The notes under the pieces are model-generated. The model did not search any database. It saw nothing but the letters and a program-made list of their open reading frames with translations, and had not been told where the DNA came from. DNA of 64,000 nt from Deltaproteobacteria bacterium (GTDB lineage Bacteria; Bdellovibrionota; FAC87; UBA2466), in assembly GCA_900299195.1 (NCBI GenBank), contig OMIX01000098.1, forward strand, positions 92,342 through 156,341, read 5' to 3'. Shown one piece after another: positions 12,286 to 55,531 of this stretch (position 1 is its first letter; each line of letters begins with the position of its first letter). A program made the translations under genes and the position numbers.

Positions 12286-12816
12286 TTTAAATTCGAGTGA
12301 AGCCTTTCAGCTTCAGCTCTCTCCTCCGCAAAATACACATATGGAACTTATTCACTGCAGGGTTGCAATGAGTGTTCCAGACTTCCGCCTGTGCGAGTAT
12401 GAGCCGTCTTTATGCTGTATTCGAAATGAGGGGTCTAAGTTTTAATGTTTTATTTTTTGACGTTTTTCGGATGCCTAACTTGTAGGTTATTGAAATCTTG
12501 TGTAGATTTTTAAACTCAGTTCTTTAAAATATAGGGTGTCAGTTAATTGAACACTCAAGATTTGAACCTGAGAATACAGGAATTTTTTTAAAAATTTCAA
12601 AGACTCAGAAACCATCACATCACAAGTTCAGTTAACAATTCGTCATGTTTGAAATGTAAATAAGTTGCTATCATTCTTGGGACACAAAAAACCGCCAACC
12701 GAGAGACCCCTAAAACGGCTTTTTTGTCTTATAATATCAGTGGTTTAACGGATTGGGGGCAGGGGGTCATACTCGTTGACTGCCCCCCACCCTTGTGTCA
12801 TAAACAGAGGCCTATT

Positions 12817-13737
12817 ATGGAAACTATCGATCAAAACGAAATCAAAACGGCAACGCCGGGTTCTTCTAGTTTTATGTTTCAAAACAGTCCCTCGATGCAA
12901 GAGCTGTTATTAAAACCCATCTCCAAAGACAACCCCATTGTAAATGATGCCAAGATTAGACGTTTATATCTTCAAGCCTCTTCCCAACAATGGTATGCCC
13001 CTCAGAAAATGAACTTTGATCTTCCTGTAGACCCAGACCCAGAGACCTGCAAAGTGTGGGCTCGAATTGCTGAAGTTTTTTATACCCTTGAAAAAATGGG
13101 CTTAAACGTAATCGCCAACATGATGCCCAAAGCCGCGGGAAAATTAAAAAGTGACGAAGTCGTTAACTACCTCGCCGTTCAATGTCATGATGAAGCACGC
13201 CACGTTTTTGTTGTGGAGAATTATTTAAAAAAACTTGGGGCTCCGCCTGTTTATAACTACAAATACCATGTACTAGGGCAAGCCGCCTCGATGGGTTTTT
13301 ATCGAGTTGAAAATTGGATGTTTTCAACTTTGTTTTCAGAAAATTTTGCTTCCGTATTTTTAAGAAGAGCCAAAGCGGGTCGAATCGATCCTTTTGGAGC
13401 TGAGATGTGCAGATACTTAATGATTGATGAAAGCCGTCATCTACATTTCTTGCATATCGTTCTCCCCGACGTCATGGACCGCTTGTCATTAATGGGAAAA
13501 ACTTATGTGAAGGCCGCTCAATTTTTCATTATGAAATTCAGTGAACTAGTTTCAAGAGGGCTTGCGTCCGATGCGGCCTACGTCGGAATTAATCGAAGAG
13601 ACATGTTAGAAGAAATTTTTGAAAATGTTGAAAAAGCTTATGAGGGGTTCGGAGTCACTCGGCAATTTTTACGCTTCCCCAAAATTACTGATTCTGGGGT
13701 TTCAACAGCTACAGTGTCTTATCCCTCGGTGAATTAG
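12817..13737 (+). CDS. Ferritin-like diiron-carboxylate protein (AurF-type or diiron oxygenase-like)
   Basis: Two E...ExxH motif pairs (LEKMG..DEARH and SENFA..DESRH) typical of four-helix-bundle diiron enzymes. ATG at 12817 follows a GAGG RBS; the ORF-track start of 12724 has no RBS. Confidence 0.45.
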   Translation: METIDQNEIKTATPGSSSFMFQNSPSMQELLLKPISKDNPIVNDAKIRRLYLQASSQQWYAPQKMNFDLPVDPDPETCKVWARIAEVFYTLEKMGLNVIANMMPKAAGKLKSDEVVNYLAVQCHDEARHVFVVENYLKKLGAPPVYNYKYHVLGQAASMGFYRVENWMFSTLFSENFASVFLRRAKAGRIDPFGAEMCRYLMIDESRHLHFLHIVLPDVMDRLSLMGKTYVKAAQFFIMKFSELVSRGLASDAAYVGINRRDMLEEIFENVEKAYEGFGVTRQFLRFPKITDSGVSTATVSYPSVN

Positions 13738-13746
13738 GTAGTTTGT

Positions 13747-13977
13747 ATGGCTGATAGAGAAGACCGTTACGAAGATAATATCCCTGGCAAATGGTACGTT
13801 GATAAAAAATGTATCCTTTGCAGTGTTTGTTCTGAAGCCGCTCCGAATAACTTTAAAGAAGCCCCAAGCGGGGATCATGACTTTGTTTATAAGCAACCTG
13901 AAACCCCTGAAGAAGAAATGCAATGTGAGGAGGCCATGGTAGCCTGCCCAGTCGAAGCTATTGGTAATGATGGCTAA
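13747..13977 (+). CDS. Small single-cluster [3Fe-4S]/[4Fe-4S] ferredoxin
   Basis: 76 aa with YVDKKCILCSVC ... ACPVEAI, the layout of 7-8 kDa ferredoxins that serve as redox partners. Confidence 0.6.
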   Translation: MADREDRYEDNIPGKWYVDKKCILCSVCSEAAPNNFKEAPSGDHDFVYKQPETPEEEMQCEEAMVACPVEAIGNDG

Positions 13978-15100
13978 CCCCAAAAACGTCCTTGTTGCCA
14001 TGAGTGGTTTCAAGGGAAGTCTTACTAACATTGAAGCCTGTCAATGTGTCGCTTCCGCTTTAAAAGATCTTAACTTAGCTCACTCTATTGTCCCCATCGG
14101 AGATGGCGGTAAGGGGACCGGCTTGGCCCTGAACCTGGCTCTTGGGGGTGAGTTTCATTCAATCGATTCGATCGATCCTTTGGGAAGACCCATCAGTGGT
14201 ACTCTTCTGTGTTTTCCAAATTCACAATCTCCCTCGAGAATCTACATCGAGAGTAGTTCTGTTTGTGGATACACTCTCATTAAGGAAGAAGAAAAAAACG
14301 CGTTACGAGCATCGAGTCGCGGTTTGGGGATAATGCTCAGAGAGTCTATTCTCCGTTGGAAGCACTCGCTTCAAGAAATCTGGATTGGGCTTGGTGATTC
14401 TGCCATCTCAGACATGGGAATGGGAATGCTTTCAGAGCTAGGAGTGCATTTTTTAAACTCAAAACAAGAACCGATCCCAGCCACCACTGATCATTTAGTT
14501 CACATAAATGCTTTTTCTCCACCCAGTCTTCACTTAAATTCTATTTCTTTAACTGTTCTTTGTGATGTATCAAATCCAGTTTGTGGCCCACAAGGAAGTG
14601 CGGTAACTTTTTCTCCCCAAAAGGGAGCAACTCCCGAACAAGTCGCTCTAATAGCTAGAGGCATGGAAAACTTTGCAACACGAATTGAAAACAAACTTCA
14701 TCGATCGCTAAAATACATTCCGATGACAGGATCTGCAGGGGGACTCTCTCCGGCTCTTTTTTCATTTTTCAATGCTAAATTAGTTCCTGGTTGTGAATTT
14801 CTACTTTCCGAAATCGGATTTGATGAAAAAATATCGCAGCATGATTGGGTTGTTACGGGAGAGGGAAGAACCGATGCCCAAACTCTCAAAGGAAAAGCTC
14901 CTGCCGTAGTTTTCGAACACTCAAGAAAACAAAACAAACAGTGTCTTTTTATTTCTGGATCGTTGGGTGAAGGATTAGACCCGATTTCGAAAGAAGGTGG
15001 GATGGTGGGGATTTATGCCTGCGGTAGAGAGCCCTCCGCCAAAGAAGCTTTAACTCGAAAAACTAGAGAGGTTTTCAGTCAGTTTAAAAGCAGTTTTTAG
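13961..15100 (+). CDS. Glycerate kinase
   Basis: 379 aa with the GarK/GlxK family signature VVTGEGRTDAQTLKGKAPAVV and N-terminal VLVAMSGFKGSL. Start overlaps the ferredoxin stop. Confidence 0.75.
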   Translation: MVMMANPKNVLVAMSGFKGSLTNIEACQCVASALKDLNLAHSIVPIGDGGKGTGLALNLALGGEFHSIDSIDPLGRPISGTLLCFPNSQSPSRIYIESSSVCGYTLIKEEEKNALRASSRGLGIMLRESILRWKHSLQEIWIGLGDSAISDMGMGMLSELGVHFLNSKQEPIPATTDHLVHINAFSPPSLHLNSISLTVLCDVSNPVCGPQGSAVTFSPQKGATPEQVALIARGMENFATRIENKLHRSLKYIPMTGSAGGLSPALFSFFNAKLVPGCEFLLSEIGFDEKISQHDWVVTGEGRTDAQTLKGKAPAVVFEHSRKQNKQCLFISGSLGEGLDPISKEGGMVGIYACGREPSAKEALTRKTREVFSQFKSSF

Positions 15101-15515: not shown

Positions 15516-16295
15516 TCACTTCTCCCATTCCCCGACCTGTCTTTCTAACTCGCTGATTTCCCAACCATAAAAGCCGCAAGGGGGTGAAATCCAAACCTGG
15601 GGATGATCTTTGAAGAGGTGATTTAAGTTATTGTTTCCTGCCTTAAGCCCACCCCAAACCAAGTTTTTCCCTTTTTGGCAAAGCCAGCGACCATAGTTTT
15701 CCTCTTCCTGGGGAGTCATGGGGCTTTGAGTAAAATCAAAGGATAAAAAATCGAAAAAGTTAATATGGTCTACAAAGGGAAAGGGACGAAGAGTCGCACA
15801 ACTATGCACCCCAAGCTTAATATCCCAGTCAACCTCCTTCACCGATTGTAAAAAAGCTGTATAACCTTCACAAATATAGGGAAGAGCGCTATTCCAAAAG
15901 GGTTCGTCTATTTGTACCCACAACTCTCCTTGAAAAGCTGCCTCTCTCAACTGTTTGCGCAACCCTTTCCAGAAGCCAACCCATAGAGGGGCAACATCTA
16001 AAAACTTGGCACTCATCGAACGGGCCACCGTATAAGGACCGGCAATCTGAATTTTATAGCGAGGACTGTCAACAAACTCATTTTGAAACAACTCTAAACA
16101 GCTTGAAGCTTTTTCATCCCAAAAGCCAAGATCAATGCCTCGCAAAACCTGACCGATCATATCTTCTTGGGGATGGCTTTCCGGCAGCTGCGGAAGAAAG
16201 GGTAAATGGCTGGAATGTTTTTTGACAAATTCAATCGCTTCTATTGGGTTTGAATGAGGAAGGCTTCCCAAATAAAAGAGTTTTTCTTTGTTCAT
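15516..16295 (-). CDS. UroD/MetE-like (cobalamin-independent methionine synthase superfamily) protein of unknown function
   Basis: 259 aa with a WVQIDEP motif resembling the IQIDEPA box of the MetE/UroD-fold family, plus conserved His and Cys residues (LGVHSC, PPCGF). Starts 3 nt after the lipB stop. Confidence 0.35.
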   Translation of the reverse strand: MNKEKLFYLGSLPHSNPIEAIEFVKKHSSHLPFLPQLPESHPQEDMIGQVLRGIDLGFWDEKASSCLELFQNEFVDSPRYKIQIAGPYTVARSMSAKFLDVAPLWVGFWKGLRKQLREAAFQGELWVQIDEPFWNSALPYICEGYTAFLQSVKEVDWDIKLGVHSCATLRPFPFVDHINFFDFLSFDFTQSPMTPQEEENYGRWLCQKGKNLVWGGLKAGNNNLNHLFKDHPQVWISPPCGFYGWEISELERQVGEWEK

Positions 16296-23549: not shown

Positions 23550-23942
23550 CTAAAGTGAAATATGCTGTCGGACTAAGGCGCGTTCTAACTTTAATTGTTG
23601 TTTTTTGAAATCGCTCTCGCTCAAAGTTCCCATCAACGCTTGTTCAGCGCGCTTCTGAGCGGCTTGAGCTCTAGCTTTATCGATATCTTTCGACTCTTCT
23701 ACCGTATCGGCTAAAACCAAAACTTTGTTGTTCCGTATTTCAGCAAACCCATAGCTGACAGAAAATTTGCGCTCTTTTCCGTCTTTAACGAAGACAAGCG
23801 GACCCGTACTCAGAAGCGTCAATAGGTCGGTATGCCCATCTAAAACCTGAAGTTCGCCTTTAGCCCCAGGTAACTTAACGCTATCTGCAGGGGCTCCATC
23901 GACCAACTTCCTAGTTGGGGTAACAATGTCTATCTTCAACAT
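23550..23942 (-). CDS. atpC: F1 ATP synthase epsilon subunit
   Basis: 130 aa, positioned after atpD; N-terminal beta-sandwich sequence MLKIDIVTP... Confidence 0.8.
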   Translation of the reverse strand: MLKIDIVTPTRKLVDGAPADSVKLPGAKGELQVLDGHTDLLTLLSTGPLVFVKDGKERKFSVSYGFAEIRNNKVLVLADTVEESKDIDKARAQAAQKRAEQALMGTLSESDFKKQQLKLERALVRQHISL

Positions 23943-23945
23943 GAA

Positions 23946-25379
<1,434 letters not shown>

Positions 25380-25391
25380 TTAAAACAAAAT

Positions 25392-26276
25392 TTATTTCAT
25401 GGCCTCTACGCCACCGACAATTTCCATCAATTCCTTCGTAATCGCTGCCTGCCGAGCTTTGTTGTAAAGCAATGTGAGATCTTCGATCATCTCTGATGCG
25501 TTCTTAGATGCATTTTCCATCGCTGACATTCTGGCTCCGTGCTCACTGGCAACCGACTCCAGAACACAGCGGAAAAACTGCATGTAAAAATGTTTGGGCA
25601 CAATATCGTTAAGAATTTCTTCTTTGGAGGGTTCAAAAATATAATTTTTAAACCTCTCGTCTTCGCCCACTTTTAAAATACCAACCACACCCTCAGGCAC
25701 TTCCGTGGCGACTGGAATCAATCGTTCGACAGTAACCCGTTGTTGGATTGCTGACTTAAATTCATTGTAAACAAGATAAATCGCATCAAATTCTTCTTTT
25801 AAATAGGCTTCTAGAATTTCGTGGGCGATAGCAGACGCTTTTGAATAGGTTACTTTAGAAAGCAGCCCCTCGTGATAACTTGAAATCGTATATTTCTTCT
25901 TAAAGAAGTCGTGTGCCTTTTTGCCAATGACGTCTAAAGAAACTTCAATTCCTGCAGCTTCTTTGGTTTTAATGAACCTTTGTGCTTCTTTAAAAACGTT
26001 TGCATTGAATGACCCGCACAGTCCCCGGTCTCCCGCCACAATGATCAATCTGATCTTTTTCTCTTCTCTGGAAACGAGAAGAGGGTGCTGGATTCCTTCC
26101 CGCTGAAACAAAGACAACAGAATGGAGTAGATCCGATAGGCAAAGGGGCGCGTACTCAAAATTGCGTCTTGAGCTCTACGCAACTTGGCCGCAGCGACCA
26201 TTTTCATCGCCCGTGTGATTTGCCTGGTATTTTGTACCGAGCTAATGCGTTTTCGTATTTCTTTACGATCAGCCAT
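25392..26276 (-). CDS. atpG: F1 ATP synthase gamma subunit
   Basis: 294 aa; MADRKEIRKRISSVQNTRQITRAMKMVAAAKLRRAQ is typical of the gamma N-terminus. Confidence 0.9.
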   Translation of the reverse strand: MADRKEIRKRISSVQNTRQITRAMKMVAAAKLRRAQDAILSTRPFAYRIYSILLSLFQREGIQHPLLVSREEKKIRLIIVAGDRGLCGSFNANVFKEAQRFIKTKEAAGIEVSLDVIGKKAHDFFKKKYTISSYHEGLLSKVTYSKASAIAHEILEAYLKEEFDAIYLVYNEFKSAIQQRVTVERLIPVATEVPEGVVGILKVGEDERFKNYIFEPSKEEILNDIVPKHFYMQFFRCVLESVASEHGARMSAMENASKNASEMIEDLTLLYNKARQAAITKELMEIVGGVEAMK

Positions 26277-26288
26277 GAAACTCTCTCA

Positions 26289-27797
26289 TTAAGCGAAGCT
26301 TGCTCCAAACTCTTCCAATGCTTTGACTAACACTGGCTTGATTTGATCATCGATAGCTTTCTTGGTTTTAATATCTTCTAGCAACTTAGGATATTTTTGT
26401 TCAATGAACTCAAAAAGCCCCTTCTCGTAAGCTCCCACTCTAGCTGTTGGGAACTTGTCCAAATATCCGTTGGTTCCGGCGTAGATGATTACCACCTGTT
26501 TTTCTACAGAAAGGGGAACGTACTGGCCCTGTTTTAACAACGCCACCATGCGCTCTCCGCGAGCCAATTGGTCTTGAGTTGCTTTGTCCAAATCAGAACC
26601 AAACTGAGCAAAAGCTGCCATCGCTCGGTACTGAGCTAAGGAAAGTCGTAAGTTACCAGCGATAGATTTCATCGCTTTGGTTTGAGCGCTACCGCCCACT
26701 CGAGAAACTGAAAGACCTACGTTAATAGCAGGTCGAACACCCGAGTAGAAAAGGTCTGTATCCAAGAAGATCTGTCCGTCAGTGATTGAAATCACATTGG
26801 TCGGAATGTACGCAGAAACGTCACCAGCTTGAGTTTCAATGATAGGAAGAGCCGTTAAACTACCGCCACCTTCTTTATCACTCAACTTCGCAGCTCGCTC
26901 TAACAAACGACTGTGAATATAGAACACGTCCCCAGGATAAGCTTCTCGTCCTGGTGGGCGTCTTAATAATAGAGACAACTGTCTGTACGCAGCTGCTTGC
27001 TTGGTCAAATCATCATAAACAATCAGCGCATGTTTTCCATTATCTCGGAACCATTCCCCCATGGTTACCCCAGCGTAGGGGGCAATATATTGAAGAGGAG
27101 CGGAAGCGCTGGCAGTTGCAGAAACCACGATGGTGTAGTCCATAGCACCTGCAGCTCTTAGTTTATCGACTACGAGAGCCACGGTTGAATTTTTCTGTCC
27201 AATCGCTACGTAGATACAGAAAACGCCCTGTCCTTTTTGATTAATAATGGTGTCGATTGCTATCGCGGTTTTTCCGGTTTGGCGGTCACCAATGATAAGC
27301 TCTCGTTGACCCCGTCCAATCGGAACCATCGCATCGATCGCCTTAATACCTGTTTGAAGTGGTTCACGAACCGATTGTCGCTTCACAATCCCAGGAGCTT
27401 TGATTTCTACGTTTCTAAATTCTTTTGATTGAATGGGTCCCATTCCATCGATGGGTTGTCCCAAAGCATTGACTACTCTTCCAACAAGAGCTTCGCCAGC
27501 CGGAACTTGTAGAATTCTTCCGGTGCGTTTAACCAAATCACCTTCTTTTACAGTGGTCACTTCTCCGAAAACTGCAACCCCGACGCTCTCTTCGTCTAGG
27601 TTCAGAACTACGCCATAAAGCCCACCAGGAAACTCCACCATTTCTCCGGCCATGGCTCCTTGAAGGCCATAAATTCTGGCTACCCCGTCACCGACATTGA
27701 GTACGGTTCCAGTTTCTGCAACTTGAACCTCTTTATCAAAGTCTTCGATGCGCTTTCTAATAATCTCACTAATTTCATCGGCGCGAATTTGTTGCAT
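26289..27797 (-). CDS. atpA: F1 ATP synthase alpha subunit
   Basis: P-loop [11 protein letters not shown]; 502 aa. Confidence 0.95.
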
Positions 27798-27808
27798 GTT
27801 TCCTCCAA

Positions 27809-28351
27809 TTAACCCGAAATTAAATTTTCTTCGAAACTATTTAACCAGCCCACCAAAGAGCCATCGTAGGTTCTGCCTCCGGCGGTGGCTTTAATTCCAC
27901 CAATAAGAGCCGGATCTACTTTGTAACTAGCTTCTACTTTTTTTCCTAAAATCTTTTGAAATTTATCTTCTATTTTTTTCTTCTCTTCACTCTCCAAAGT
28001 AGTGGCTGTCTCCACTTGAAGAGCAATAACATTAGCTGATTCTAAAAGAATCAACTGAAGACGATCTGAAATAGCACTTAAATGATCGAGTCTCTTTGCA
28101 GATGATAAGGTTAATAAAACCTTCAATGCCTCTGCAGATAGTTTTGCTTTGGAAACAAGCTCTTCTACTACAGATCTTCTCTCGGCCTCAGAGTAGACAT
28201 CGCTGGTTAAAACTAAACTCAGCTCATTGTGCCCCTCTAAAAGAAACGCGAAACCCCTTAACTCAGTGATCAAACTGCGGATCCGCGACTCATCTTTAAG
28301 ATAGTCGAAAATTGCCCTTGCATATCTTTGTGAAACTTTATCTTGTGCCAT
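27809..28351 (-). CDS. atpH: F1 ATP synthase delta subunit (OSCP)
   Basis: 180 aa, positioned between atpF and atpA; OSCP-like sequence. Confidence 0.75.
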
Positions 28352-28820
28352 GACCTACCAAATCTACAAATTCTGTTACAAGCTTGTGCTTTTCCTGTGC
28401 GGGTAAATGTTCACCCAAATAGAGTTCTGCAAGTTCAACGCTTCTTTCAATAGCCTCTTTCTGCAGTCCTTGTTTAGCTTTTAAAATTTCTCCCGAGCTT
28501 AAAAGTTCAGCTTCTTTTTTGATTCGTTCCGCTTCATGTTTAGCTTCGGTTAAAGTTTTTTCTCGAAACCTGATTAAGCTAGCTTCAGAGTCTTTCTTGT
28601 CTTGCAATGCGTGAGCTTGAGCTTGATTCCAATTATTTTCCCAAGTAGACAGCTCTTCATGCGCATTTTTTGCCATCTGTTCTGCCTCTGAAATTAAATT
28701 TTTCACACCTTCTGACCGAGCAGCCATAAAACTTGCAAAGGGTTTTCTTCCAAAAAAAACAAAAATGAAAACCACAACACTGAAATTTAAGATACTAGCA
28801 ATGACTACGTGTGCTTCCAT
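28338..28820 (-). CDS. atpF: Fo ATP synthase b subunit
   Basis: N-terminal TM helix followed by a long charged coiled coil. 160 aa. Confidence 0.7.
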   Translation of the reverse strand: MEAHVVIASILNFSVVVFIFVFFGRKPFASFMAARSEGVKNLISEAEQMAKNAHEELSTWENNWNQAQAHALQDKKDSEASLIRFREKTLTEAKHEAERIKKEAELLSSGEILKAKQGLQKEAIERSVELAELYLGEHLPAQEKHKLVTEFVDLVGHGTR

Positions 28821-28822
28821 CG

Positions 28823-29356
28823 TTATCCCTGAACCACCGGACGATTATTTAGGTTTTTTTTTACCCCAACATCGACTCCGGAAATTTTAACTGTTTTTCC
28901 GACAAGCTTACTGGCAATTCTGCTTGAGAAATCCGAAATCATTGGAGTGAGTTCATTTCTCACCTGAGAAACTTCTGTATCAATTTGTTTTCTTATCTCT
29001 TCCAGTTTTTGAGCCGCTTGATCACGAGCAGCCTGCACAAGTTTAGTTTCTTCTTCTGATATTTTCTTTTTTTCTTCATCTAACCACAGGGCAGTTTTTT
29101 TGTGCTCTGTCTTAATAAAGTTTTCGTAATCCGATTTCAGCTGCCCAGCTTTTTTCTTGGCTTCTTCAGCTTCTTCTTTCAAACCGTGAGTTTTGTGTTC
29201 GCGTATATGAATCAATTCCATTAGCGGTTTAAAAACCAAAAGTTTCATGACCATAAAACTGGCTAGAAAAAGACCTAGCTGGATCAAAAACTCGATAGCA
29301 AATTGTCTATTTAATACCAGCCCTTCCATTACTTCCATGGGATCCCTCTTAAACAA
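28823..29356 (-). CDS. Fo ATP synthase b' subunit (second b-type subunit)
   Basis: A second b-like protein (TM helix plus charged helix) immediately upstream of atpF. Confidence 0.55.
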   Translation of the reverse strand: MFKRDPMEVMEGLVLNRQFAIEFLIQLGLFLASFMVMKLLVFKPLMELIHIREHKTHGLKEEAEEAKKKAGQLKSDYENFIKTEHKKTALWLDEEKKKISEEETKLVQAARDQAAQKLEEIRKQIDTEVSQVRNELTPMISDFSSRIASKLVGKTVKISGVDVGVKKNLNNRPVVQG

Positions 29357-29453: not shown

Positions 29454-29858
29454 TTAATTCGTCTTGGTTTGCCTAGTAAGACCGGGAAGGGGACCCAACA
29501 TTTTAGTTTTTCCATCAAACACTGCCCCTTCCTCAATCTGCAATATCGCGGTTTGAACTGTGCCTCGAACCACAGCTGGGGCTTGAATTTCCACTCTCTG
29601 GGTAGAATAAATATCTCCCGAGAAATGTCCTGAAATTACAACAACATCCGCTTCTATTTGACCAGTAACTTGGGCTTCATCACCAATGATCAAAATGTCC
29701 GGAGTAAAAATTTCTCCTTTAAAACTGCCATCTATTCTGGCCGTTCCTTCAAATTGGAGACGTCCCTCAAGATGACACCCTTTTTGAAGAACCACAGTAA
29801 CTTCGTGGCTTACTGAGGGAAGATCAAATGGATCCTGGCGGCGTTGAAACATTTTCAC
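29454..29858 (-). CDS. Bactofilin (DUF583 polymer-forming cytoskeletal protein)
   Basis: Beta-helical bactofilin repeat GTARIDGSFKGEIFTPDILIIGDEAQVTGQIEADVVVISGHFSGDIY. Directly downstream of parB. Confidence 0.75.
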   Translation of the reverse strand: MKMFQRRQDPFDLPSVSHEVTVVLQKGCHLEGRLQFEGTARIDGSFKGEIFTPDILIIGDEAQVTGQIEADVVVISGHFSGDIYSTQRVEIQAPAVVRGTVQTAILQIEEGAVFDGKTKMLGPLPGLTRQTKTN

Positions 29859-34374: not shown

Positions 34375-35739
34375 TTACTTCCCAATACAAAAATCACTAA
34401 AAATACGGCCTAAAACATCGTCAACTTCGACTTTCCCTACCACATTTTCAAGCTGAACCATAATTTTTCGACTAAACTCAGCTAGGATTTCAGGGGGATA
34501 CCCTTTATGTAGTTGAGATTTCAATTCTTTTAGGATTTCGGTCACAGCCTCTAATCTGGCCGCTTGCACAGCAGTGGGTGTCGGACCTAAATGATCAATA
34601 ATCAACTTTGCTGCCGTTGATTCCAGGCTAGACCAAAATTCTTCCATGTTGGCGGAGTTAAAAACAGAACCCTCCACCGATTTGTCTTTTAATTGCTGAG
34701 GACTTTTTTTCCAATTTGAAAGGTCCATTTTGTTCCAGAAAATTAAGTGGGGAACACTTCCAAAGCGATCAAGAAGTCCCTGTTCCTGTTCTGTAATGCC
34801 CTGCGTTCCATCAACAACTAAAACCCAGATAGATGCACTAGATAAAAATGCGGATCCTAATTCGATCCCTTCTTGCTCAATAAAATTCTCGGTCGTTCTT
34901 ATGCCGGCCGTATCAGCAACCATCCAAGGACGACTCAATATTTCAATTTGTTCCTCGATGACGTCTCGAGTGGTTCCAGCTTCTTCCGAAACAATAGCTC
35001 GGTATCTACCTAACATAGAATTAAAAAGAGAGGATTTTCCGGCGTTAGGCCTTCCGACTAAAACAATTTTCGGCAAGATTTTACCGCTCTTAAACCTCGA
35101 GTATCTCTGAGTAATCTCTGAGCACTCATGAATAAGCTCTTCAATTTATTGATTAGCTAACTCCACTGCCGAGGAATACTCTTCCGAAAAATCAACGGCG
35201 GTATCAAGTATCGCCTGAATTTTGATGAGTCGTGATCTTAGATCTTCTATTTTCTTCTCTAGCCCACCATCTCTGCGGGAATAGACAGCTTGCAAATCCA
35301 CCGAATGTACAGCATTAAAAACATCCGCTAAATTCTCTAACTCTAAGGGAGATTGTTTTCCGTTGAGTAAAGCCCGGTAAGAAAACTCTCCCCGCTCCGC
35401 AGGCCTTGCCGACAAAGACAAGAGTTCTTTTTCCAAAGAATGAATGACTGCAACCGAACCATGACAATGAAACTCAATAGTGTCATCGCCACTATGGGAG
35501 TTGGGCCCCACAAAAGAAATTGCCATAATGTCATCGATTTTTTTTCCTGTCCGGGTATGCAGAACACCAAACCAGATATCGCGAATTTTCGATAGCTCTC
35601 TAGACTTTGGAGTAAATAGCTTTTCCGCAATTAAAAATGCCTTCGGACCCGAAAGTTTTACGACTCCAATGGCAGAGGGAAGTGTCCCAGTGGTAAGAGC
35701 AAAAATGGTATCTTCTAAACTTAAGTTCTCACGCAACAT
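34375..35739 (-). pseudogene. mnmE: tRNA modification GTPase MnmE (TrmE) interrupted by a single in-frame TAA at 35148-35146
   Basis: ORF 35739-35146 encodes the MnmE N-terminal domain (FALTTG...AIGVVKLSG). The same frame continues after the TAA into the G domain (GRPNAGKSSLFN) and the C-terminal CIGK. The uninterrupted frame is 455 codons, the canonical MnmE length. Confidence 0.6.
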
Positions 35740-39840: not shown

Positions 39841-39998
39841 TGTGGATAAAAAGGTATGCTTTTTCTTTGGGGTAATGTTAATAACTATGTTGAAAACATT
39901 GTTAATTGTTTGTTAATTGTTTGTTGAAAACTTGTTGATAACTTTTTATCCACAGTTCATCCACAGCTTTTAAAAAGTTATCCACATCGTTATCCACA
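39841..39998. promoter_or_regulatory. DnaA-box cluster of oriC
   Basis: Perfect TTATCCACA 9-mers at 39841-39849 (reverse), 39946-39954, 39978-39986 and 39990-39998, plus TCATCCACA at 39957-39965. Also contains direct repeats GTTAATTGTTT x2 (39901-39922) and TGTTGAAAAC x2. Confidence 0.8.
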
Positions 39999-43758: not shown

Positions 43759-46274
43759 TGGAAACCACAGATTTACAGCTTAGTCAGGTCAGTATTGAAG
43801 ATCAAATGCGGGATGCGTACCTCGAATACGCAATGTCCGTGATCGTCGGTAGAGCTTTGCCCGATGTCAGAGACGGTATGAAGCCTGTTCATCGTCGTAT
43901 TTTGTACGCCATGTATGACATGGGAAATACTTACGATAAAGCTTATAAGAAATCTGCGAGAATTGTCGGTGACGTCATCGGTAAATACCATCCGCATGGG
44001 GATACTGCCGTTTATGAAACCATGGTTCGGATGGCCCAAGATTTCAGTATGCGGTACACCTTGGTGGACGGACAAGGAAACTTTGGTTCCGTAGACGGTG
44101 ATGCAGCGGCGGCAATGCGATACACTGAAGTAAGACTTGCTAAAATCACCAATGAAGTTTTAGCCGATTTAGAAAAAGAGACCGTCAATTTCAATCCAAA
44201 TTATGACAACTCTTTACAAGAGCCTGCGGTTCTTCCCACGAAAATTCCTAATTTGCTTGTGAATGGTTCCTCTGGAATTGCTGTGGGAATGGCTACTAAC
44301 ATTCCCCCACACAACTTGAATGAAGTGGTTGATGGGATCAAAGCGGTAGTGGCTAATCCATCCATTTCGATTTCGGAACTGATGCAAATTATTCCCGGTC
44401 CGGATTTTCCTACCGCCGGATTTATTTATGGCAGAAACGGACTGAAAGAGGCGTATCACACAGGTAAAGGCATTATTCATTTAAGAGCAAAGGCCGATAT
44501 CGAGGATGTGAAAAATGACAAACAACGTATTGTCGTTACGGAAATTCCTTATCAAGTCAATAAATCTAAGCTGATTGAAAGTATTGCTGAGTTAGTTCGA
44601 GATAAAAAAGTTGAGGGCATTTCTGATATCCGTGATGAATCGGATAGAACAGGAATGAGAATAGTTTTTGATTTGAAAAAGGGAGAAGATTCCAGAGTTA
44701 TTCTCAATCAACTTTACAAAAATTCCCAAATGCAAATTTCGTTTGGGATTAGCATGTTGGCTTTAGACCATCAGCAACCCAAACTTTTAAATTTAAAAGA
44801 ATGTTTAGTTGCTTTTCTACAACATCGAAAAGAGGTCGTCACAAAACGAACTGTTTTCGATTTAAGGAAAGCAGAAGAAAAAGCACACATTTTAGAAGCT
44901 TTAAAAAAGGCCGTTGAAAATCTTGATGAAGTCGTTTCCTTAATCAGAAAAGCGAGTAACCCGGCAGAAGCTCAAGAGAAGTTAATCGCCAAATTTAGCT
45001 TCACTGAAATTCAGGCTAAAGCCATCTTGGAGATGAGACTTCAAAGATTAACAGGCCTGGAACGTGAAAAGATCGTTGCTGATTACAACGAAACGATGGC
45101 CTTGATCGCAGATTTAAAATCGATATTGTCAGATGAAAAACGGGTTTTAGCGATCATTGAAACAGAGCTAGATGAAGTAAAAAAATCTTTCGGAGATCCA
45201 AGAAGAACAGAGTTTATTGAAGAACAAGAAGAGATGACCGATGAGGATTATATTGTTGAAGAAGAGATGGTCGTCACAGTTACCTACTCCGGATATATCA
45301 AGCGCTTACCCGTAGATGCCTATCGTTCCCAACGACGAGGAGGTAAGGGCGTTATTGGAGCGGCAACTAAGTCTGAGGATTTCATTCAAGATATTTTCGT
45401 TGCAAGCACACACGAAAACATTTTGTGTTTTACTGACCAAGGAAGAGTGTATTGGTTAAAAGTTCATAAGATTCCCGAAGCCGGTAGGGCGGCAAAGGGT
45501 AAGCCGATCGTTAACTTGTTGAATCTCACCACCAATGAACGGGTTCAAGCAGTTCTTCCAGTCAAAGAATTTAAAGAAACTGAATTTGTGACAATGGTAA
45601 CTCGACAAGGAACCATCAAAAAGACTTCGCTTGGGGCGTTTTCTCGGCCGATGAAAAAGGGAATTATTGCGATCACGACTGACGATGGCGACTCCTTGGT
45701 CGATGCAAAAGTCTGTAATGGAAGTAATCACATTGTTTTGGTCAGCAAATTTGGTCAAAGCATTCGATTTGAGGAACAAGATGTTCGGCCCATGGGTAGA
45801 ACTGCTAGGGGTGTGGCCGGCATGCGATTGGATGAAGGGGACATTGTGATCGGCATGGCAGTTGTGATGCCGGACGATAAAACAGCACAAGTTCTCACTG
45901 TGACTCAAAAAGGTTATGGGAAGCGAACGCTTTTAGACGAATACCGCGTTCAAGGTCGAGGCGGTTCCGGTGTGATTACGATGAAGATCACAGATAAAAA
46001 TGGACCGGTGGAAGCAGTTAGTCAGGTCAAAGACGAAGATGATCTTATTATTGCATCCGATCGGGGTAAGGTGATTCGAACTCGAGTTTCTGAAATTTCG
46101 GAGGTGGGTCGAGTGGCTCAGGGAGTGAGACTTATTTCCATGGATGACGGGGAAAGTGTAGGGGCTGTTGCAAAAATTGTTGAAAAGGAAGATGAGCACC
46201 CTGATCCCAAGGCTGCAGCCGTAGTTCCTGAAACAAGTCCTAAGACTGATGAGGGAACAGGTAATGCTAGTTAG
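43758..46274 (+). CDS. gyrA: DNA gyrase subunit A
   Basis: [23 protein letters not shown] with the active-site Tyr region, plus C-terminal beta-pinwheel repeats. 838 aa. Confidence 0.95.
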
Positions 46275-47048
46275 AGTTTTTTTTTAAGTCTTCTCGTCGT
46301 TTTTCTAGGGTGTACGCAACAAAAACAGGAGAAGTTATTAGAAGCCGCGGAGACTAAACTGACCGAGGGCAAATACTCGGAAGCTACTGAACTGCTTCGC
46401 AAGGTTATTTCTTTAAATCCAGAAAACAAACTGGCTGTTAAAGCAATGTTCAAGTTAGGTTTTACTTTAGAAACCTACGGGAGAGACTACGATGGGGCTG
46501 TTTTTAATTATCAGGAAGCCATTCGTTTAAGCCAAGACCCTGTTTCAGTGTATGAAATTCAAAAGCGAGTGGCTAATATCTTTTTCGAGCAGGGCAAAGA
46601 CATTGATAAGGCAATAGCCGCTTACAAGAAACTTATTTCATTTAACCCAAAAAGCCTAGAGCTCGACTTTTTTCAATTTCGAACAGCAGAAGCCTATTTT
46701 CGTCAGAATAATTTTGAACAGGCCAGAACCGAGTACCAGCTTATTTTAGAAAATTTTCCTAAAAGCCAATATATTGCAAAGAGCCGTTTTGAAATTGGAA
46801 ATACTTATTACATGGAGGGCAAGTATGACATTGCTCTCGAAGCTCTAAAGCAGGTAGGAAGATACCATCCCCAAACGGAATATGCAGTTGAAGCCGAGTT
46901 TTTAATTGCCCAATGTCTTGAACAAACACAGAAAGAGCAAGCTGCGATTCAAATTTACGAAAACCTCAAAAATCGATATTCGAATCCAAAAATCATCGAA
47001 TATCGAATTGATCAATTAAAGAAAAGGGTCAGGAAGGGGCCTAAATGA
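46264..47048 (+). CDS. TPR-repeat outer-membrane lipoprotein (BamD-like); the start is reachable only through a +1 or -2 indel in a T9 tract
   Basis: The frame of ORF 46446-47048 is open back to 46275. It encodes ...[14 protein letters not shown] (a signal peptide with an LxGC lipobox) but has no in-frame start codon. The ATG at 46264 is in another frame and joins the main frame if the T9 run (46277-46285) is T10 or T7. Confidence 0.45.
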
Positions 47049-47266
47049 TTAAGCTAGACGGCAAGAAAATTAGAATAGCGATGATGATGGGAAATGCAGT
47101 GATGACCAAAGCCATCATGATCGCTGCCGGATGGTATTTCGGGAGCAAACTGGACAAAAAATATGGTACGGAGCCCTATGGGATGGTTGGTCTGGTGATT
47201 TTAGCCATGATTTTAGGGGTATGGTACATCCTGAGGGTCGCCAAAAAAAATAATTTAACGGATTGA
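47045..47266 (+). CDS. AtpI/AtpZ-like small membrane protein of the ATP synthase operon
   Basis: 73 aa with two TM helices, immediately upstream of atpB. Its start overlaps the TPR gene stop. Confidence 0.5.
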   Translation: MIKLDGKKIRIAMMMGNAVMTKAIMIAAGWYFGSKLDKKYGTEPYGMVGLVILAMILGVWYILRVAKKNNLTD

Positions 47267-47280
47267 TACCCGAAATTAGG

Positions 47281-47335
47281 GGGTTAATAGTTAACGATCA
47301 ACCCTGTTGACAGGGTTAATAGTAAACGATCAACC
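47281..47335. repeat. Two 23-bp direct repeats GGGTTAATAGT(T/A)AACGATCAACC flanking a TTGACA hexamer upstream of atpB
   Basis: Copies at 47281-47303 and 47313-47335, with TTGACA at 47307-47312. Each copy contains the inverted repeat GTTAA-TAG-TTAAC. Confidence 0.5.
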
Positions 47336-47431
47336 GGTAAATTTTTTGAATTACCTAATTGATTGAATCTTTATTGAAATATCAAAACATTGGTTGTATG
47401 ACAGGGTGTTCAAATTGGGAGTTATTAAAGC

Positions 47432-48160
47432 ATGCAAAGTCATGGTTCAGCACATCATGGTCCTGAAAGCTGGTTAACTAAGCTTCCTATACTTCCGCAG
47501 GATCGAGCTTGGGAAAGTGTTAATGGTGCGATTCTTGTATTTGTATTTATTTGCCTAGTTTCATGGATAGTAAACAGGGTAATTAAAGGAAAAATCGCAG
47601 AAAACGTGGTTCCTAGGGCCAAAATTGGACTTTTTTCGGTGGTCGATTTGTTGGTTGAAGGGCTTTACAATTTGATTGTTGGAATTGTTGGACATCATTA
47701 CGGTGCTGACGCCTTTCCTTTTATTGCCTCTGTTTTTATTTACGTTCTTCTTAACAACCTTTTAGGGTTATTGCCTCTTTCGGCTTCTCCAAGTTCCTCT
47801 TTCCCTATAGCCTTCGCTTTAGGGTTATCCAGCTTTGTTTTTTACAATTGGATGGGAATTAAGGCCAACGGAGTGGCTGGTTATGGTAAGCATTTTTTGA
47901 TGGGTCTTGGGGTCTTTGGGGTTCCGATTGCTGCTTTCGAGTTAGTCTCACATGTGATTAGGCCTTTTACTTTGGGATTACGGTTAAGAACCAACATGCA
48001 TATTGATCACATGTTGGCTGGGGCATTTGCTGACCTTTGTAAATGGATTGTTCCTGTTCCGTTGTTGCTTTTTGGAGTAGTGGTCTGTACGATACAGGCC
48101 TTTCTTTTTGCGGTTTTGACAGCTGTTTATGTACAGATGGCAACTGAACACGAAGAATAA
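47432..48160 (+). CDS. atpB: Fo ATP synthase a subunit
   Basis: 242 aa polytopic protein with the conserved Arg region LGLRLRTNM. Confidence 0.9.
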   Translation: MQSHGSAHHGPESWLTKLPILPQDRAWESVNGAILVFVFICLVSWIVNRVIKGKIAENVVPRAKIGLFSVVDLLVEGLYNLIVGIVGHHYGADAFPFIASVFIYVLLNNLLGLLPLSASPSSSFPIAFALGLSSFVFYNWMGIKANGVAGYGKHFLMGLGVFGVPIAAFELVSHVIRPFTLGLRLRTNMHIDHMLAGAFADLCKWIVPVPLLLFGVVVCTIQAFLFAVLTAVYVQMATEHEE

Positions 48161-48180
48161 CTTTTTTTAGGAGGTAAGGT

Positions 48181-48501
48181 ATGAAGTTAATCAATATGTC
48201 TAAGTTGGCGTTAATCGGAATGTTCATCTCCTCAGCAAGCGTATTTGCAGAAGAAGGTGCTCATGCAGTAGCTACTGGTGGAGCCGCTGGCCCATTAGCA
48301 GTTGGTTTGGCTATGGCTTTAGCAGTTATTGCTGCAGCGACAGCCCAAGGTAAAATTGGTACAGCTTTTATGGATGGCGTTTCCAGAAATCCTGGAGCTC
48401 AAAAATCCATGTTCGTTCCATTGATTCTTTCCTTGGTTTTCGTCGAAACCTTGGTGCTTTTTACCTTCCTAGTAGCTCAAAGCTTACTTGGAAAATTCTA
48501 G
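48181..48501 (+). CDS. atpE: Fo ATP synthase c subunit with an N-terminal signal-like extension
   Basis: The C-terminal 75 aa form a typical c-subunit hairpin (GAAGPLAVGLAMALAVIAAATAQG ... LVFVETLVLFTFLVA). It is preceded by about 30 aa, MKLINMSKLALIGMFISSASVFAEEGAHA. Confidence 0.85.
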   Translation: MKLINMSKLALIGMFISSASVFAEEGAHAVATGGAAGPLAVGLAMALAVIAAATAQGKIGTAFMDGVSRNPGAQKSMFVPLILSLVFVETLVLFTFLVAQSLLGKF

Positions 48502-51437: not shown

Positions 51438-52802
51438 CTAACGAAGCTCTTTTAATAAATCACTAACCGTTTTTTCCATTGAGGACTGAATTTCCTCAAG
51501 TCTCTTTTGAGAGGAGGCTTCAAACCGTAACACCAAAACGGGTTGAGTGTTTGAGGCCCGTACTAAGCCCCACCCATCACCAAACTCAACTCGAGCCCCA
51601 TCGATATCGTTCACCTTAAGTCCCTGGGACTGAAAGCTTTTAAGCGCTTTTTGAACTACGACAAACTTAATATCATCAGGACAGTCTCTGCGAATTTCCG
51701 GCGTAGAAAATGAGTTTGGAAGATCGCTGATTAGTTCGGCTGTCGTCTTTTGAGTGTAAGAAAGTATTTCCAACAACCTGGCCCCCGCGTAAATAGCATC
51801 GTCGTAGCCAAAATAACGGTCATTGAAAAAGATATGGCCTGACATTTCTCCGGCTAGCAGTGCATTTTCTTCTTTCATTTTGGCTTTGATAAGGCTGTGG
51901 CCCGTTTTCCAAAGAATGGGACGCCCGCCATGGGCTGCGATGTCATTAAAGAGGCGATGCGATGCTTTTACCTCTGAAATGATAGTGGCCCCCTTGTTTT
52001 TCTGTAGAATATCTCTTGAGTAAACGACCAAGAGCTCATCCCCAAAAATTGGACGGCCAGAAGGGTCAACAACTCCTATCCGATCGGCGTCACCATCAAA
52101 ACCGATTCCCACCACAGCACCTGTTTCCTTCATCTTTCTTTTGAGATCGGAAAGGTTTTCAATGACAGTAGGGTCTGGATGGTGATTGGGGAATCTCCCA
52201 TCTAATTCCGAGTAAAGCTCAATCACTTCGCAACCCAAACGCCTAAATAATTCTGGAGCAATCATTCCACCCATTCCGTTACCACTATCGACGCATATTT
52301 TTAAGTTTAGGGGGTGCTTGATAGACTTAAGAATCATCTGAGAATAAGCGGGTTTGATATCCATTTCGGAAAGAGATCCCTGTCCGCAACTGAAATGGTT
52401 ACCCAATAATAGGGCCTTCACTTCTTGAATCTCAGCTCCATGAATGGTTGTTTTACCAACACAAATTTTAAAGCCATTGTGTTCGGCGGGATTGTGACTT
52501 CCAGTGATCATAATTCCACCGTCTGTTTTTAATTCAAAAACAGAAAAATAAAGAAGCGGAGTTGGGACTAAGCCGATATCAATGACATTGATGCCCGCTT
52601 TTAATAGGCCTTGGGTCAGGGCGCTTCGAATTCGATTTGAACTCAGTCGGCAATCTCTACCCAGGGTGATGGTGCTTCCACCTTTTTTAGTGATGAAAGT
52701 TCCCAAAGCCCTTCCGAGTTCAGTTACTATTGGATCAGACAAGTCCTGGTCTGCAATTCCCCGGATGTCATATTCCCTGAAAATTTTTTCATTGATATTC
52801 AT
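51438..52802 (-). CDS. Phosphomannomutase/phosphoglucomutase (AlgC/ManB type)
   Basis: Active-site [14 protein letters not shown] and the metal-binding GFDGDADR motif. Confidence 0.85.
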
Positions 52803-53812
52803 GGAGTCTCCTTAGCAGAATTTCCAATGACAGAAATATTGGACTCTTTCTTTTTTTTCTCAATCCAAAGGGCCATTTTCTTTTCAAGTTCCGTGGCCGC
52901 CATCTGATTTCTGATGGCCTCTCTCTTTTCTTTGGGCAAAGTCGAGAAGTCAGGCGAACGAACTTCTAAGAGTTTCAAAATATGAAAACCATCACTGAGC
53001 TGAATGGGCTTTGTTACTTGTCCCACCTTAACTTTGGGTATGACTGGCTTGAATTCCTTAGATAATGAAGAAACTGAAAAATATCCAAGGACTCCATCGG
53101 GGGATTCAGAGTCATCCGAATATTCTTTTACGAGGCGTTGAAAATCCGAGCCCTTTTCCGAGGCGAGCCTCCAAACCTCATTCGCACGAGTCTCGGCATC
53201 TTTTTTTGCTTTGGATGAGGAGTCTTTAAATCCCAGAAAAATATGCGCAAGTTTATACTCTTGTTCGGTTTCCTCTGGGCTGGCATTTCTTAAGTAATAA
53301 TGACGAAGTTGTTCGTCTGACAGTTCTAATGAGGGGCGGATTTCTCGGTCAATTAGGTTTCTTCTTTCAATCTGCCTACGAATTCCATCCTTGTATTCAG
53401 AAAGCGATGAACCTAGTTGTTTCAGCCGCTCAACTAGTTGGGATTGCGAAATAGCATTTCTTTTTAAAATCGATTTGATTTGAGCCTCGACTTCTTGGTC
53501 GGAGGCATTGAGTTCGAGTTTTTTCACCTGTTGATTAACTAAGCGCTCTTCGATTAGCAGTTGCAAGGCCGCATCACGATTGTCGATGACGTTATTTGGA
53601 ATGCCACCAAAAAGCTCTTGAAAGCTTTTTGATTTGAGTCTCTTCTGAAAAGCGGACACATCAGATTCTAAAATAGGCTCATCGTTGATGAGCACAAGGG
53701 TTCTGTCGATTATTTTTGTGGTTGCAAATAGAACCGAACCCACAAAAGAAAAAACAAACAAAAGATTATAAAATGGAATTATAAACAGATTCATTTTTAT
53801 ATATTTCTCCAT
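52799..53812 (-). CDS. surA: SurA-like periplasmic chaperone / parvulin peptidyl-prolyl isomerase
   Basis: N-terminal IDRTLVLINDEPILESDV parallels SurA VDKVAAVVNNGVVLESDV. The C-terminal parvulin domain has the motif GQVTKPIQLSDGFHILKLLE. Confidence 0.65.
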   Translation of the reverse strand: MEKYIKMNLFIIPFYNLLFVFSFVGSVLFATTKIIDRTLVLINDEPILESDVSAFQKRLKSKSFQELFGGIPNNVIDNRDAALQLLIEERLVNQQVKKLELNASDQEVEAQIKSILKRNAISQSQLVERLKQLGSSLSEYKDGIRRQIERRNLIDREIRPSLELSDEQLRHYYLRNASPEETEQEYKLAHIFLGFKDSSSKAKKDAETRANEVWRLASEKGSDFQRLVKEYSDDSESPDGVLGYFSVSSLSKEFKPVIPKVKVGQVTKPIQLSDGFHILKLLEVRSPDFSTLPKEKREAIRNQMAATELEKKMALWIEKKKKESNISVIGNSAKETP

Positions 53813-54707
53813 CTTTGAGTAATTTGCTCAGCCATTCCTTGTAAACAGTCCCCTCTTTTTCTTTTTTTAGCTTTTTAACTATTTCAGCTTTGGCTTCATT
53901 AAAAAGCAGCCGTTTAGAGGGTTTCTTTTCAACCACTTTTAATAAATGAACTCCGAATCGGCTGCTGATGGGTTTAGAAATGGTGTTTACCGACAGGCTA
54001 AAGGCTGCGTTGAAGGCCTCAATTTTTTCATTTTTAGCAAAAAATCCAAGGTCCCCACCTTTTGAGGAGTCGGGGCTCATCGATCGAGCTCTCGCTGCTG
54101 ATTCAAAGGAGATCTTTCCAGTTGTAATTTCTTGCCTGATTTTCTCCGCCTCTTCTCTGGTCGGGACTACAATTTGAAAGACGTGAACTTTTTCAGGCTC
54201 GATAAATTCTTTTTCATGTTGTTTGAAGTAGGTTTTTACTTCTTCGTCCGGGACGAGAGTTTCGTTAGTAAAGAGAGAGCCAGTTATTTTTTCTATGAGT
54301 AGTTGATCTTCGATTCTTTGCTTTAGTAAAGCTTCAGTGGTGTTTTGTTTCTTTAACATCTCCTCAAAACCGCCCGGAGGATAGCCGTCTTTCCAGTCGG
54401 CAAGCTTGCTTTCAACTTGCTCACGGCTTACTCGAATTTGATGCTTGGCAGCCTCTTGGCGAACAATGGTTAGAATAATGGTTTCGTTTAATGCCCTCGA
54501 TTTCAATGATTCAATGATTTTGGGGTTTTTCTGGGAAATATCATCTTGCTCAGACTTTAGTTGTTGGTAGCCCACGAGAAAATCACCCAGAAAGATGGGA
54601 TCACCATTAACTTTGGCAAGAAGGGTGGTTTTGTTGTCCTCTAGTTTAGAGGTACAAGCCACCAGGAACAGGCTAGCGAGTAGAGCATTAAGCCAAAATC
54701 GAATCAT
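53766..54707 (-). CDS. Parvulin-type PPIase lipoprotein (PrsA/PpiD-like)
   Basis: Lipobox LFLVAC and a parvulin domain (HVFQIVVP...SKGGDLGFFAKNE...FGVHLLKV). Confidence 0.6.
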   Translation of the reverse strand: MIRFWLNALLASLFLVACTSKLEDNKTTLLAKVNGDPIFLGDFLVGYQQLKSEQDDISQKNPKIIESLKSRALNETIILTIVRQEAAKHQIRVSREQVESKLADWKDGYPPGGFEEMLKKQNTTEALLKQRIEDQLLIEKITGSLFTNETLVPDEEVKTYFKQHEKEFIEPEKVHVFQIVVPTREEAEKIRQEITTGKISFESAARARSMSPDSSKGGDLGFFAKNEKIEAFNAAFSLSVNTISKPISSRFGVHLLKVVEKKPSKRLLFNEAKAEIVKKLKKEKEGTVYKEWLSKLLKDGEIYKNESVYNSIL

Positions 54708-55531
54708 TTATCCTTCCTGGAAACAGAAGAGGTCTCAATGGTGGCCTTTAACTCCAGACTTTTTAAAAGTTCGGTGAGAAGAGTCTTTTCTTTTGATTCT
54801 TCAAAGCGGCTCTGTAGATATTGCAAATAAGAAGCTGGAGCGGTTGTGAAAGGTTTTTTCTCAAACCACTCAAAGTAGTGGACCGTTGAACCTATTTCGA
54901 TAGGATCAGAGACGGTGTTTTTTGGAAGTCCTCTGATTTTTAAGTAAAACTCTTCGGGAAAATTATGGGGACCCCGAAAATCATTATCTCCTCCGAAAAG
55001 AGCCGAAGCATCTTGAGAATAACGAGTACAAAGTTGTTCAAAGGGAGTTCCGTTTTTAAGCTCTTTGCCTATTTGAGACATCGTTAAGTCAGCAACCTGT
55101 CTTTCAGCCTCGGTTCTTCGATTTAAGACGAGGTGATGAATTCTAATTAAAGGAAACTTCTCATAAAACTGATGAAGTTCTTTTTCAGTGGGAGTGAACT
55201 GTTTTTTCTGGTTCTTGCGTTCGTGTTCGATGAATTTTTTGTAGAGCAACTTATTTAATTCCGTTTGTATATCGGGAGATCTCTCAAGCCCTAATTTTTT
55301 GGCTTCTTGAATGATTAATCGATATTGAATCGCTCTTTGGATTTTTTCATCTCGAGTGAGAGGGGTAGACTCAGGGGCCAGATCCTCTTCATAAATGACC
55401 TCGCCATTCACTTTGGCGACAATCGAGGATGAATTAGGGTTGTTTGAAGCCCAGGATAGCGCACAAACCGAGAATAATATTAGAGGTTTAAGCATGCCCC
55501 CCATGCTAACGGAAACAGGTCTTACGCGCAA
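54704..55531 (-). CDS. Third parvulin-like PPIase or chaperone (degenerate)
   Basis: Signal peptide plus a SurA-like N-terminus (IVAKVNGEVIYEEDL) and a parvulin-like segment (IHHLVLN...ALFGGDNDF). Confidence 0.45.
   Translation of the reverse strand: MRVRPVSVSMGGMLKPLILFSVCALSWASNNPNSSSIVAKVNGEVIYEEDLAPESTPLTRDEKIQRAIQYRLIIQEAKKLGLERSPDIQTELNKLLYKKFIEHERKNQKKQFTPTEKELHQFYEKFPLIRIHHLVLNRRTEAERQVADLTMSQIGKELKNGTPFEQLCTRYSQDASALFGGDNDFRGPHNFPEEFYLKIRGLPKNTVSDPIEIGSTVHYFEWFEKKPFTTAPASYLQYLQSRFEESKEKTLLTELLKSLELKATIETSSVSRKDK

Follow-up and report, generated by a model that had tools for sequence, protein, structure and literature searches.

A recent in-frame TAA in mnmE of an uncultured freshwater bacterium, probably a natural null allele

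The interrupted gene and its surroundings

The DNA analysed here (the window) is a stretch of 64,000 nucleotides from contig OMIX01000098.1 (positions 92,342 to 156,341, forward strand) of assembly GCA_900299195.1, assigned to a Deltaproteobacteria bacterium of the GTDB lineage Bdellovibrionota; FAC87; UBA2466. All coordinates are those of the window. The features around mnmE, in the order of transcription, are the following.

37361–35742, minus strand: yidC, 539 aa, intact; 2 nt separate its stop from the mnmE ATG
35739–34375, minus strand: whole mnmE frame, interrupted once; 99.93% identical to the intact mnmE of relative L005 over 1365 b
35739–35146, minus strand: 5' ORF of 197 aa with an ATG start; TrmE_N (dimerisation, folate binding) and the first helices of the helical domain
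35148–35146, minus strand: codon 198, the premature TAA; the substitution is at 35148, which reads T on the coding strand and A on the plus strand
35145–34375, minus strand: 3' part of the mnmE frame, codons 199–454; rest of helix 188–218, G domain, C-terminal helices and CIGK
35076–34375, minus strand: longest possible restart ORF in the mechanical ORF list, 233 aa, from a TTG at 35076 (codon 222)
34372–32468, minus strand: mnmG (gidA), 634 aa, intact; the distance to its ATG is 2 nt from the mnmE stop and 773 nt from the premature one
32474–31839, minus strand: rsmG (gidB), 211 aa, intact; overlaps the mnmG end by 7 nt

The mnmE frame was translated from the window and comprises 455 codons (454 sense positions and a terminal TAA), with the TAA at 35148–35146 as its sole internal stop. 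The first-pass annotation, made from the letters alone, had described this 455-codon frame with its single TAA, the motifs FALTTG, AIGVVKLSG, GRPNAGKSS and C-terminal CIGK as intact, a downstream piece starting at TTG 35076, and an undamaged mnmG and rsmG; all of these were reproduced by translation or found in the ORF list, where the downstream piece is entered as 34375–35076 (233 aa). Together, yidC, mnmE, mnmG and rsmG form a tightly packed operon, and their order is conserved in all of the relatives' contigs that were fetched. The 197-aa ORF is identical to the public protein P0126 and the 233-aa ORF, which begins 2 residues ahead of G-domain strand β1, to P0125. Both are placed by the public protein collection on one NCBI contig of 177,258 b, so the TAA is present in the deposited record and the gene was called there as two proteins.

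The gene was identified as mnmE, the product of which we take to be the tRNA uridine-5-carboxymethylaminomethyl(34) synthesis GTPase, using the read-through product with X at codon 198. This product scored 260.9 bits against the TIGR00450 equivalog model (cut-off 252.6, residues 19–454) and 329.6 bits against NF003661, which is under the stricter cut-off of 380 for that model. In Pfam, the 197-aa piece matched TrmE_N (PF10396, E = 2e-31) and the start of MnmE_helical (PF12631), and the 3' piece matched MMR_HSR1 (PF01926, E = 8e-23) and the remainder of MnmE_helical. The read-through product was aligned end to end with the solved MnmE structures 3GEH, 1XZP and 9HIP (E = 2.6e-56 to 2.1e-48), and an AlphaFold model was built on 35 homologues (mean pLDDT 83.3). 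Pfam, model and structure alignment agree on TrmE_N followed by a helical domain into which a Ras-like G domain is inserted. In the model, the G domain runs from 224 to about 383, the order of secondary-structure elements fits MnmE, and codon 198 falls within the first third of helix 188–218, a long helix running into strand β1 (224–229), which agrees with the first-pass placement of the stop in the helical domain, immediately ahead of the G domain. The GTPase motifs are G1 GRPNAGKS (229–236), G2 GTTRD (TTRD 256–259), G3 DTAG (276–279) and G4 NKMD (336–339), and CIGK at residues 451–454 is the C(I/L/V)GK end motif of MnmE; these positions are mostly invariant among the 35 homologues. The three-part architecture, G1 to G4 and the CIGK end are thus common to the window's gene and known MnmE (TrmE/ThdF; Nostoc 3GEH, Thermotoga maritima 1XZP, and 9HIP), but the TAA at codon 198 means that no single 454-aa polypeptide can be encoded, whereas mnmE is uninterrupted in all conspecifics and in all of the 120 homologues listed. 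Sequence, architecture, motifs and context all identify the gene as mnmE; the one defining feature of the family that it lacks is an uninterrupted polypeptide of about 450 aa.

Several other features of the window were recorded. A DnaA-box cluster lies in the dnaA-dnaN spacer (39841–39998), with four perfect TTATCCACA boxes and two one-mismatch copies in about 160 b, and is probably the replication origin; across the whole window, 33 matches with up to one mismatch were counted vs 13.8 expected. The F-type ATP synthase genes are arranged in two opposite-strand blocks flanking the origin region (47045–48501, plus strand, and 23550–29356, minus strand), separated by about 17 kb that carries par, mnm, yidC, dnaA and gyr genes. 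One block holds an atpI-like gene, atpB and atpE, and the other holds two tandem b-subunit genes, atpH, atpA, atpG, atpD and, to judge by its position alone, probably atpC. A bactofilin gene (29454–29858, minus strand) overlaps the end of parB and sits directly between parAB and an ATP synthase block. Three tandem SurA/PpiC-type peptidyl-prolyl isomerase genes (52799–55531, minus strand) lie downstream of an SCO1/SenC gene, and genes for an AurF-like di-iron oxygenase (PF11583), a small ferredoxin and a glycerate kinase form a compact cluster at 12817–15100 (plus strand). Further split-gene candidates were sought among same-frame adjacent ORF pairs. Those at 4138, 60461, 51440, 20701 and 16301 are distinct genes, and those at 46272 (gyrA and its neighbour) and 23948 (atpD and atpC) were identified as separate genes by the relatives' gene calls and the internal-stop check. 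The 259-aa ORF at 15519–16295 had no Pfam match.

Codon 198 in relatives and substitutions across the window

A protein search matched P0001, a full-length protein of 454 aa that is 100% identical to the read-through product apart from the X at 198. Its 90% cluster contains four full-length members, all with Glu at position 198, together with fragments of 197 and 233 aa. P0123, the protein that the window would encode if codon 198 specified Glu, was found on 3 contigs. At the DNA level, four conspecific assemblies (98.9–99.9% identity to the window) were compared, and codon 198 is GAA (Glu) in 4/4, as listed here with the identity of their mnmE genes to that of the window.

L005, ENA ERZ937630 (assembly of freshwater metagenome run SRR1514963): 99.93%, GAA
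L001, ENA ERZ27292200: 99.78%, GAA
L010, JGI 3300042141: 99.12%, GAA
L009, NCBI GCA_046089625.1: 99.05%, GAA

These four have different sample accessions, and L005/L014 and the 150-kb scaffold behind L015, which carries P0123, may share one project. The mnmE of L005 differs from that of the window at one base in 1365, with G for T at 35148 (coding strand). In relatives at 67–74% protein identity, which are MAGs labelled Deltaproteobacteria or Bdellovibrionales, codon 198 is CAA, ATC or GTA, and across homologues the position is variable (E, Q, A, F, I, V). On these comparisons, the TAA of the window is to be read as derived and private: a G→T transversion of GAA (Glu198) on the coding strand, or C to A on the plus strand. 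The comparison with close relatives had been proposed at first pass, where a very recent nonsense mutation was one of three readings offered, and the sense codon in all four conspecifics and the one-base difference from L005 show that the change is indeed very recent. GAA in other assemblies does not refute TAA here, because those are different strains or assemblies.

The TAA allele was seen in one record only across all collections searched. A 38-nt DNA pattern, exact but for an N where the alleles differ, had no match in the JGI metagenomes, a protein-pattern scan of the same metagenomes returned only the 74%-identity relative and no second sighting of the TAA, and a contig scan of the GTDB representative genomes, among which this species was not found, returned relatives at 67–74% identity only.

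Within mnmE, codons 165–166 (35242–35245) are GAA GAT in the window and L005 and GAG GAG in L001, the differences being 3 nt apart. Three of the 18 differences between the window and L001 fall in mnmE where about 1 is expected, a share that is too small for a reading of relaxed selection. Apart from the TAA, the window's mnmE has no private change, with about one expected at 8e-4 private changes per site, and mnmG has one synonymous difference only.

The comparison was extended over nearly the whole window using relatives' contigs that were reached through two other genes (99.84–99.94% identity in the extended alignment). A substitution was counted as private where the window differs and at least two covering relatives agree, over 59,665 positions. 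This gave 50 private substitutions: 35 synonymous, 11 missense, 1 nonsense and 3 outside the gene list, among which 63375 and 63645 probably belong to a Na/Pi-cotransporter gene cut by the end of the window. GyrB Q703 is among the residues private to the window. Random base errors in these genes would be expected to be 22% synonymous, 73% missense and 4.9% nonsense; 35/47 of the private coding changes in the whole comparison are synonymous, and in the central 21 kb the figure is 9/12 vs 22% under random error (P = 1.5e-4). Nonsense changes make up 1/12 (8%) of the private non-synonymous changes vs a mutational expectation of 6%. No indel private to the window was found over about 60 kb. The sole indel of that comparison is in an intergenic A run at ~12680–12686, which is A6 in the window and L012 and A7 in L011, and is private to L011, not to the window. 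By the internal-stop check, mnmE is the only interrupted gene out of about 55.

The excess of synonymous changes suggests that most private differences are real, selection-filtered variants of a distinct strain, and to judge from this pattern the window is an accurate assembly of that strain. The same bias implies that errors are far rarer than private differences, which occur at 8e-4 per site. Accuracy across the window as a whole speaks against frequent errors, without vouching for any particular base.

Readings of the internal stop

The TAA is probably a very recent loss-of-function nonsense allele of mnmE, in effect a natural knock-out. It is derived and confined to this record, and it arose so recently that the rest of the gene is unchanged. 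A derived origin, as in a recent pseudogene, is seen in the GAA of the four conspecifics and in the sense codons of more distant relatives. Neither mnmE nor mnmG shows decay elsewhere as an independent sign of relaxed selection, and less than one extra change would be expected at this divergence. The likeness to single-nonsense young bacterial pseudogenes extends to the one disabling point mutation, the intact orthologue in the closest relatives, the absence of further decay and the intact neighbours; there is no material difference from them, and the sole uncertainty is the reality of the base. A fixed null in a free-living population is somewhat unexpected, since MnmE is nearly universal and its loss costly.

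The main rival to a null allele is a consensus, base-call or assembly artefact, in which the organism has GAA and the T at 35148 is either wrong or a minority variant picked from a mixed population. In favour of an artefact, the allele is a singleton: every other conspecific assembly has GAA, the 197-aa and 233-aa fragments are encoded by no other record, and the rest of mnmE is unchanged. The record also appears to be metagenome-derived, as all relatives found are MAGs or metagenome contigs, and such a consensus can be strain-chimeric. Against this stand the lack of any indel in the window over about 60 kb of relatives, the strong skew of its private substitutions towards synonymous changes, unlike random errors, and the fact that a random error would be nonsense in only about 5% of cases. 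An artefact is on balance unlikely, though it keeps an appreciable share of the probability.

The gene could also be expressed as two polypeptides, as was suggested at first pass, with the 197-aa piece and the 233-aa product of a restart at TTG-35076 assembling non-covalently into an active enzyme. Every motif is kept across the two halves, the TTG has a moderate SD-like site and lies 69 nt past the stop, just ahead of strand β1, and the G domain is inserted in the helical domain, so the pieces roughly match structural modules. The split, however, is absent from every relative, near or far, and is found in the window's own record alone, and the restart signals are base-for-base identical in the intact relatives, so they have not been selected for a restart role. 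The SD-like site at TTG-222 has a dG of −5.1 kcal/mol (canonical anti-SD assumed), which is equalled or beaten by 15% of random NTG triplets, and 38% of real starts are at least as strong; a small hairpin (35086–35071) encloses the TTG. As an observation on the window, SD pairing at real starts is generally weak (42 gene starts; median −3.55 kcal/mol with a canonical anti-SD, a quarter weaker than −1.6), so SD strength is a poor discriminator of starts in this organism on these 42. In the AlphaFold model the break falls within helix 188–218, and residues 198–221 are absent from both pieces, including C206, R212 and Y213, which are nearly invariant among the 35 homologues. TTG-222 is the only canonical in-frame start after the stop, and ATT-199 is the only in-frame codon whose use would retain these three residues; ATT is a very poor initiator codon. 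With a split that is conserved nowhere, an unexceptional downstream start and conserved residues left uncovered, the suggestion of two polypeptides is disfavoured, and a functional two-piece MnmE is judged highly improbable. Literature on natural mnmE pseudogenes or premature stops gave general background only, with no report of a split MnmE.

Decoding of TAA-198 by a suppressor tRNA, an altered code or programmed read-through would give full-length MnmE, and since codon 198 is variable in homologues any inserted residue would probably be tolerated. However, TAA is the commonest stop in the window, closing 28/51 genuine ORF ends including that of mnmE itself, and the internal stop reads TAAA, which is the most frequent of the four-base stop contexts. 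None of the other genes, out of about 55, has an in-frame stop, neither a tRNA gene nor an Rfam element was found within the window, and the conspecifics encode Glu198 by ordinary GAA. Mutants in trmE/mnmE were first isolated as antisuppressors of ochre suppression, so loss of MnmE would not be expected to favour read-through of its own gene. To the extent that a single window can tell, recoding is excluded, and we consider it extremely unlikely. Overall, there is only a very slim chance that the TAA is real and population-fixed while MnmE activity is kept by a non-covalent two-piece enzyme or by low-level read-through; if it were so, this would be the first natural split of MnmE at the helical/G-domain junction.

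Predicted effects and meaning of a null allele

If the mnmE change is a null allele, the proposed course of events begins with G-to-T at 35148 (coding strand), by which an uncultured freshwater bacterium acquired TAA in place of GAA (Glu198) in one of its strains or populations. Translation would end after Gln197, and the 197-aa product would consist of the N-terminal dimerisation/folate domain and about three helices. Without the GTPase domain and the CIGK segment, GTP-dependent (c)mnm5 addition to wobble uridine 34 would be lost, and the intact MnmG would be left without a working partner. Hydrolysis of GTP by the G domain drives the MnmE–MnmG reaction (PMC4227215). The 773 untranslated nt ahead of the coupled mnmG start may also reduce expression of mnmG and rsmG. 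Rho-dependent polarity may act on these two genes; the untranslated stretch is not C-rich (C 17%, G 24%), and no promoter-like site was seen on the coding strand between the mnmE and mnmG starts.

Laboratory deletions of mnmE/gidA have been engineered in Streptococcus, Salmonella, Francisella and Bacillus subtilis, and what they lose, the MnmEG step of (c)mnm5U34 synthesis, is also what is predicted to be lost here. Their phenotypes were measured, whereas the allele of the window is natural, belongs to an uncultured organism and is known from sequence alone. In several bacteria such knock-outs survive with pleiotropic defects (PMC12632869, PMC4227215, PMC12501158), and mnmEG is reported to be essential in S. 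pneumoniae, so tolerance of the loss depends on the species. On the null-allele reading, the TAA marks either a young pseudogene or a deleterious polymorphism of a transient kind rather than an adaptation, and a natural mnmE null is plausibly a transient allele that is mildly to strongly deleterious.

Strain-specific inactivation by one nonsense change is an already well-known kind of event and not a new type of split gene. What is new here is the ancestral codon GAA, the status of the TAA as a singleton vs at least four conspecific assemblies, the clean state of the rest of the window, and the finding that the idea of two polypeptides is unsupported. For annotation, a real TAA means that the gene is better treated as a pseudogene than as two proteins, the form in which the public protein collection lists the fragments separately; an erroneous base would call for correcting that single position in the record. 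The case is also a caution for MAG-based reconstructions of metabolism and tRNA modification, in which a gene scored as present may be non-functional and one scored as absent merely miscalled. The tRNAs served by the MnmEG pathway are those for Lys, Glu, Gln, Leu(UAA), Arg(UCU) and Gly(UCC). A real TAA would make the strain a natural mnmE null, and all of these tRNAs would then be without the (c)mnm5 group.
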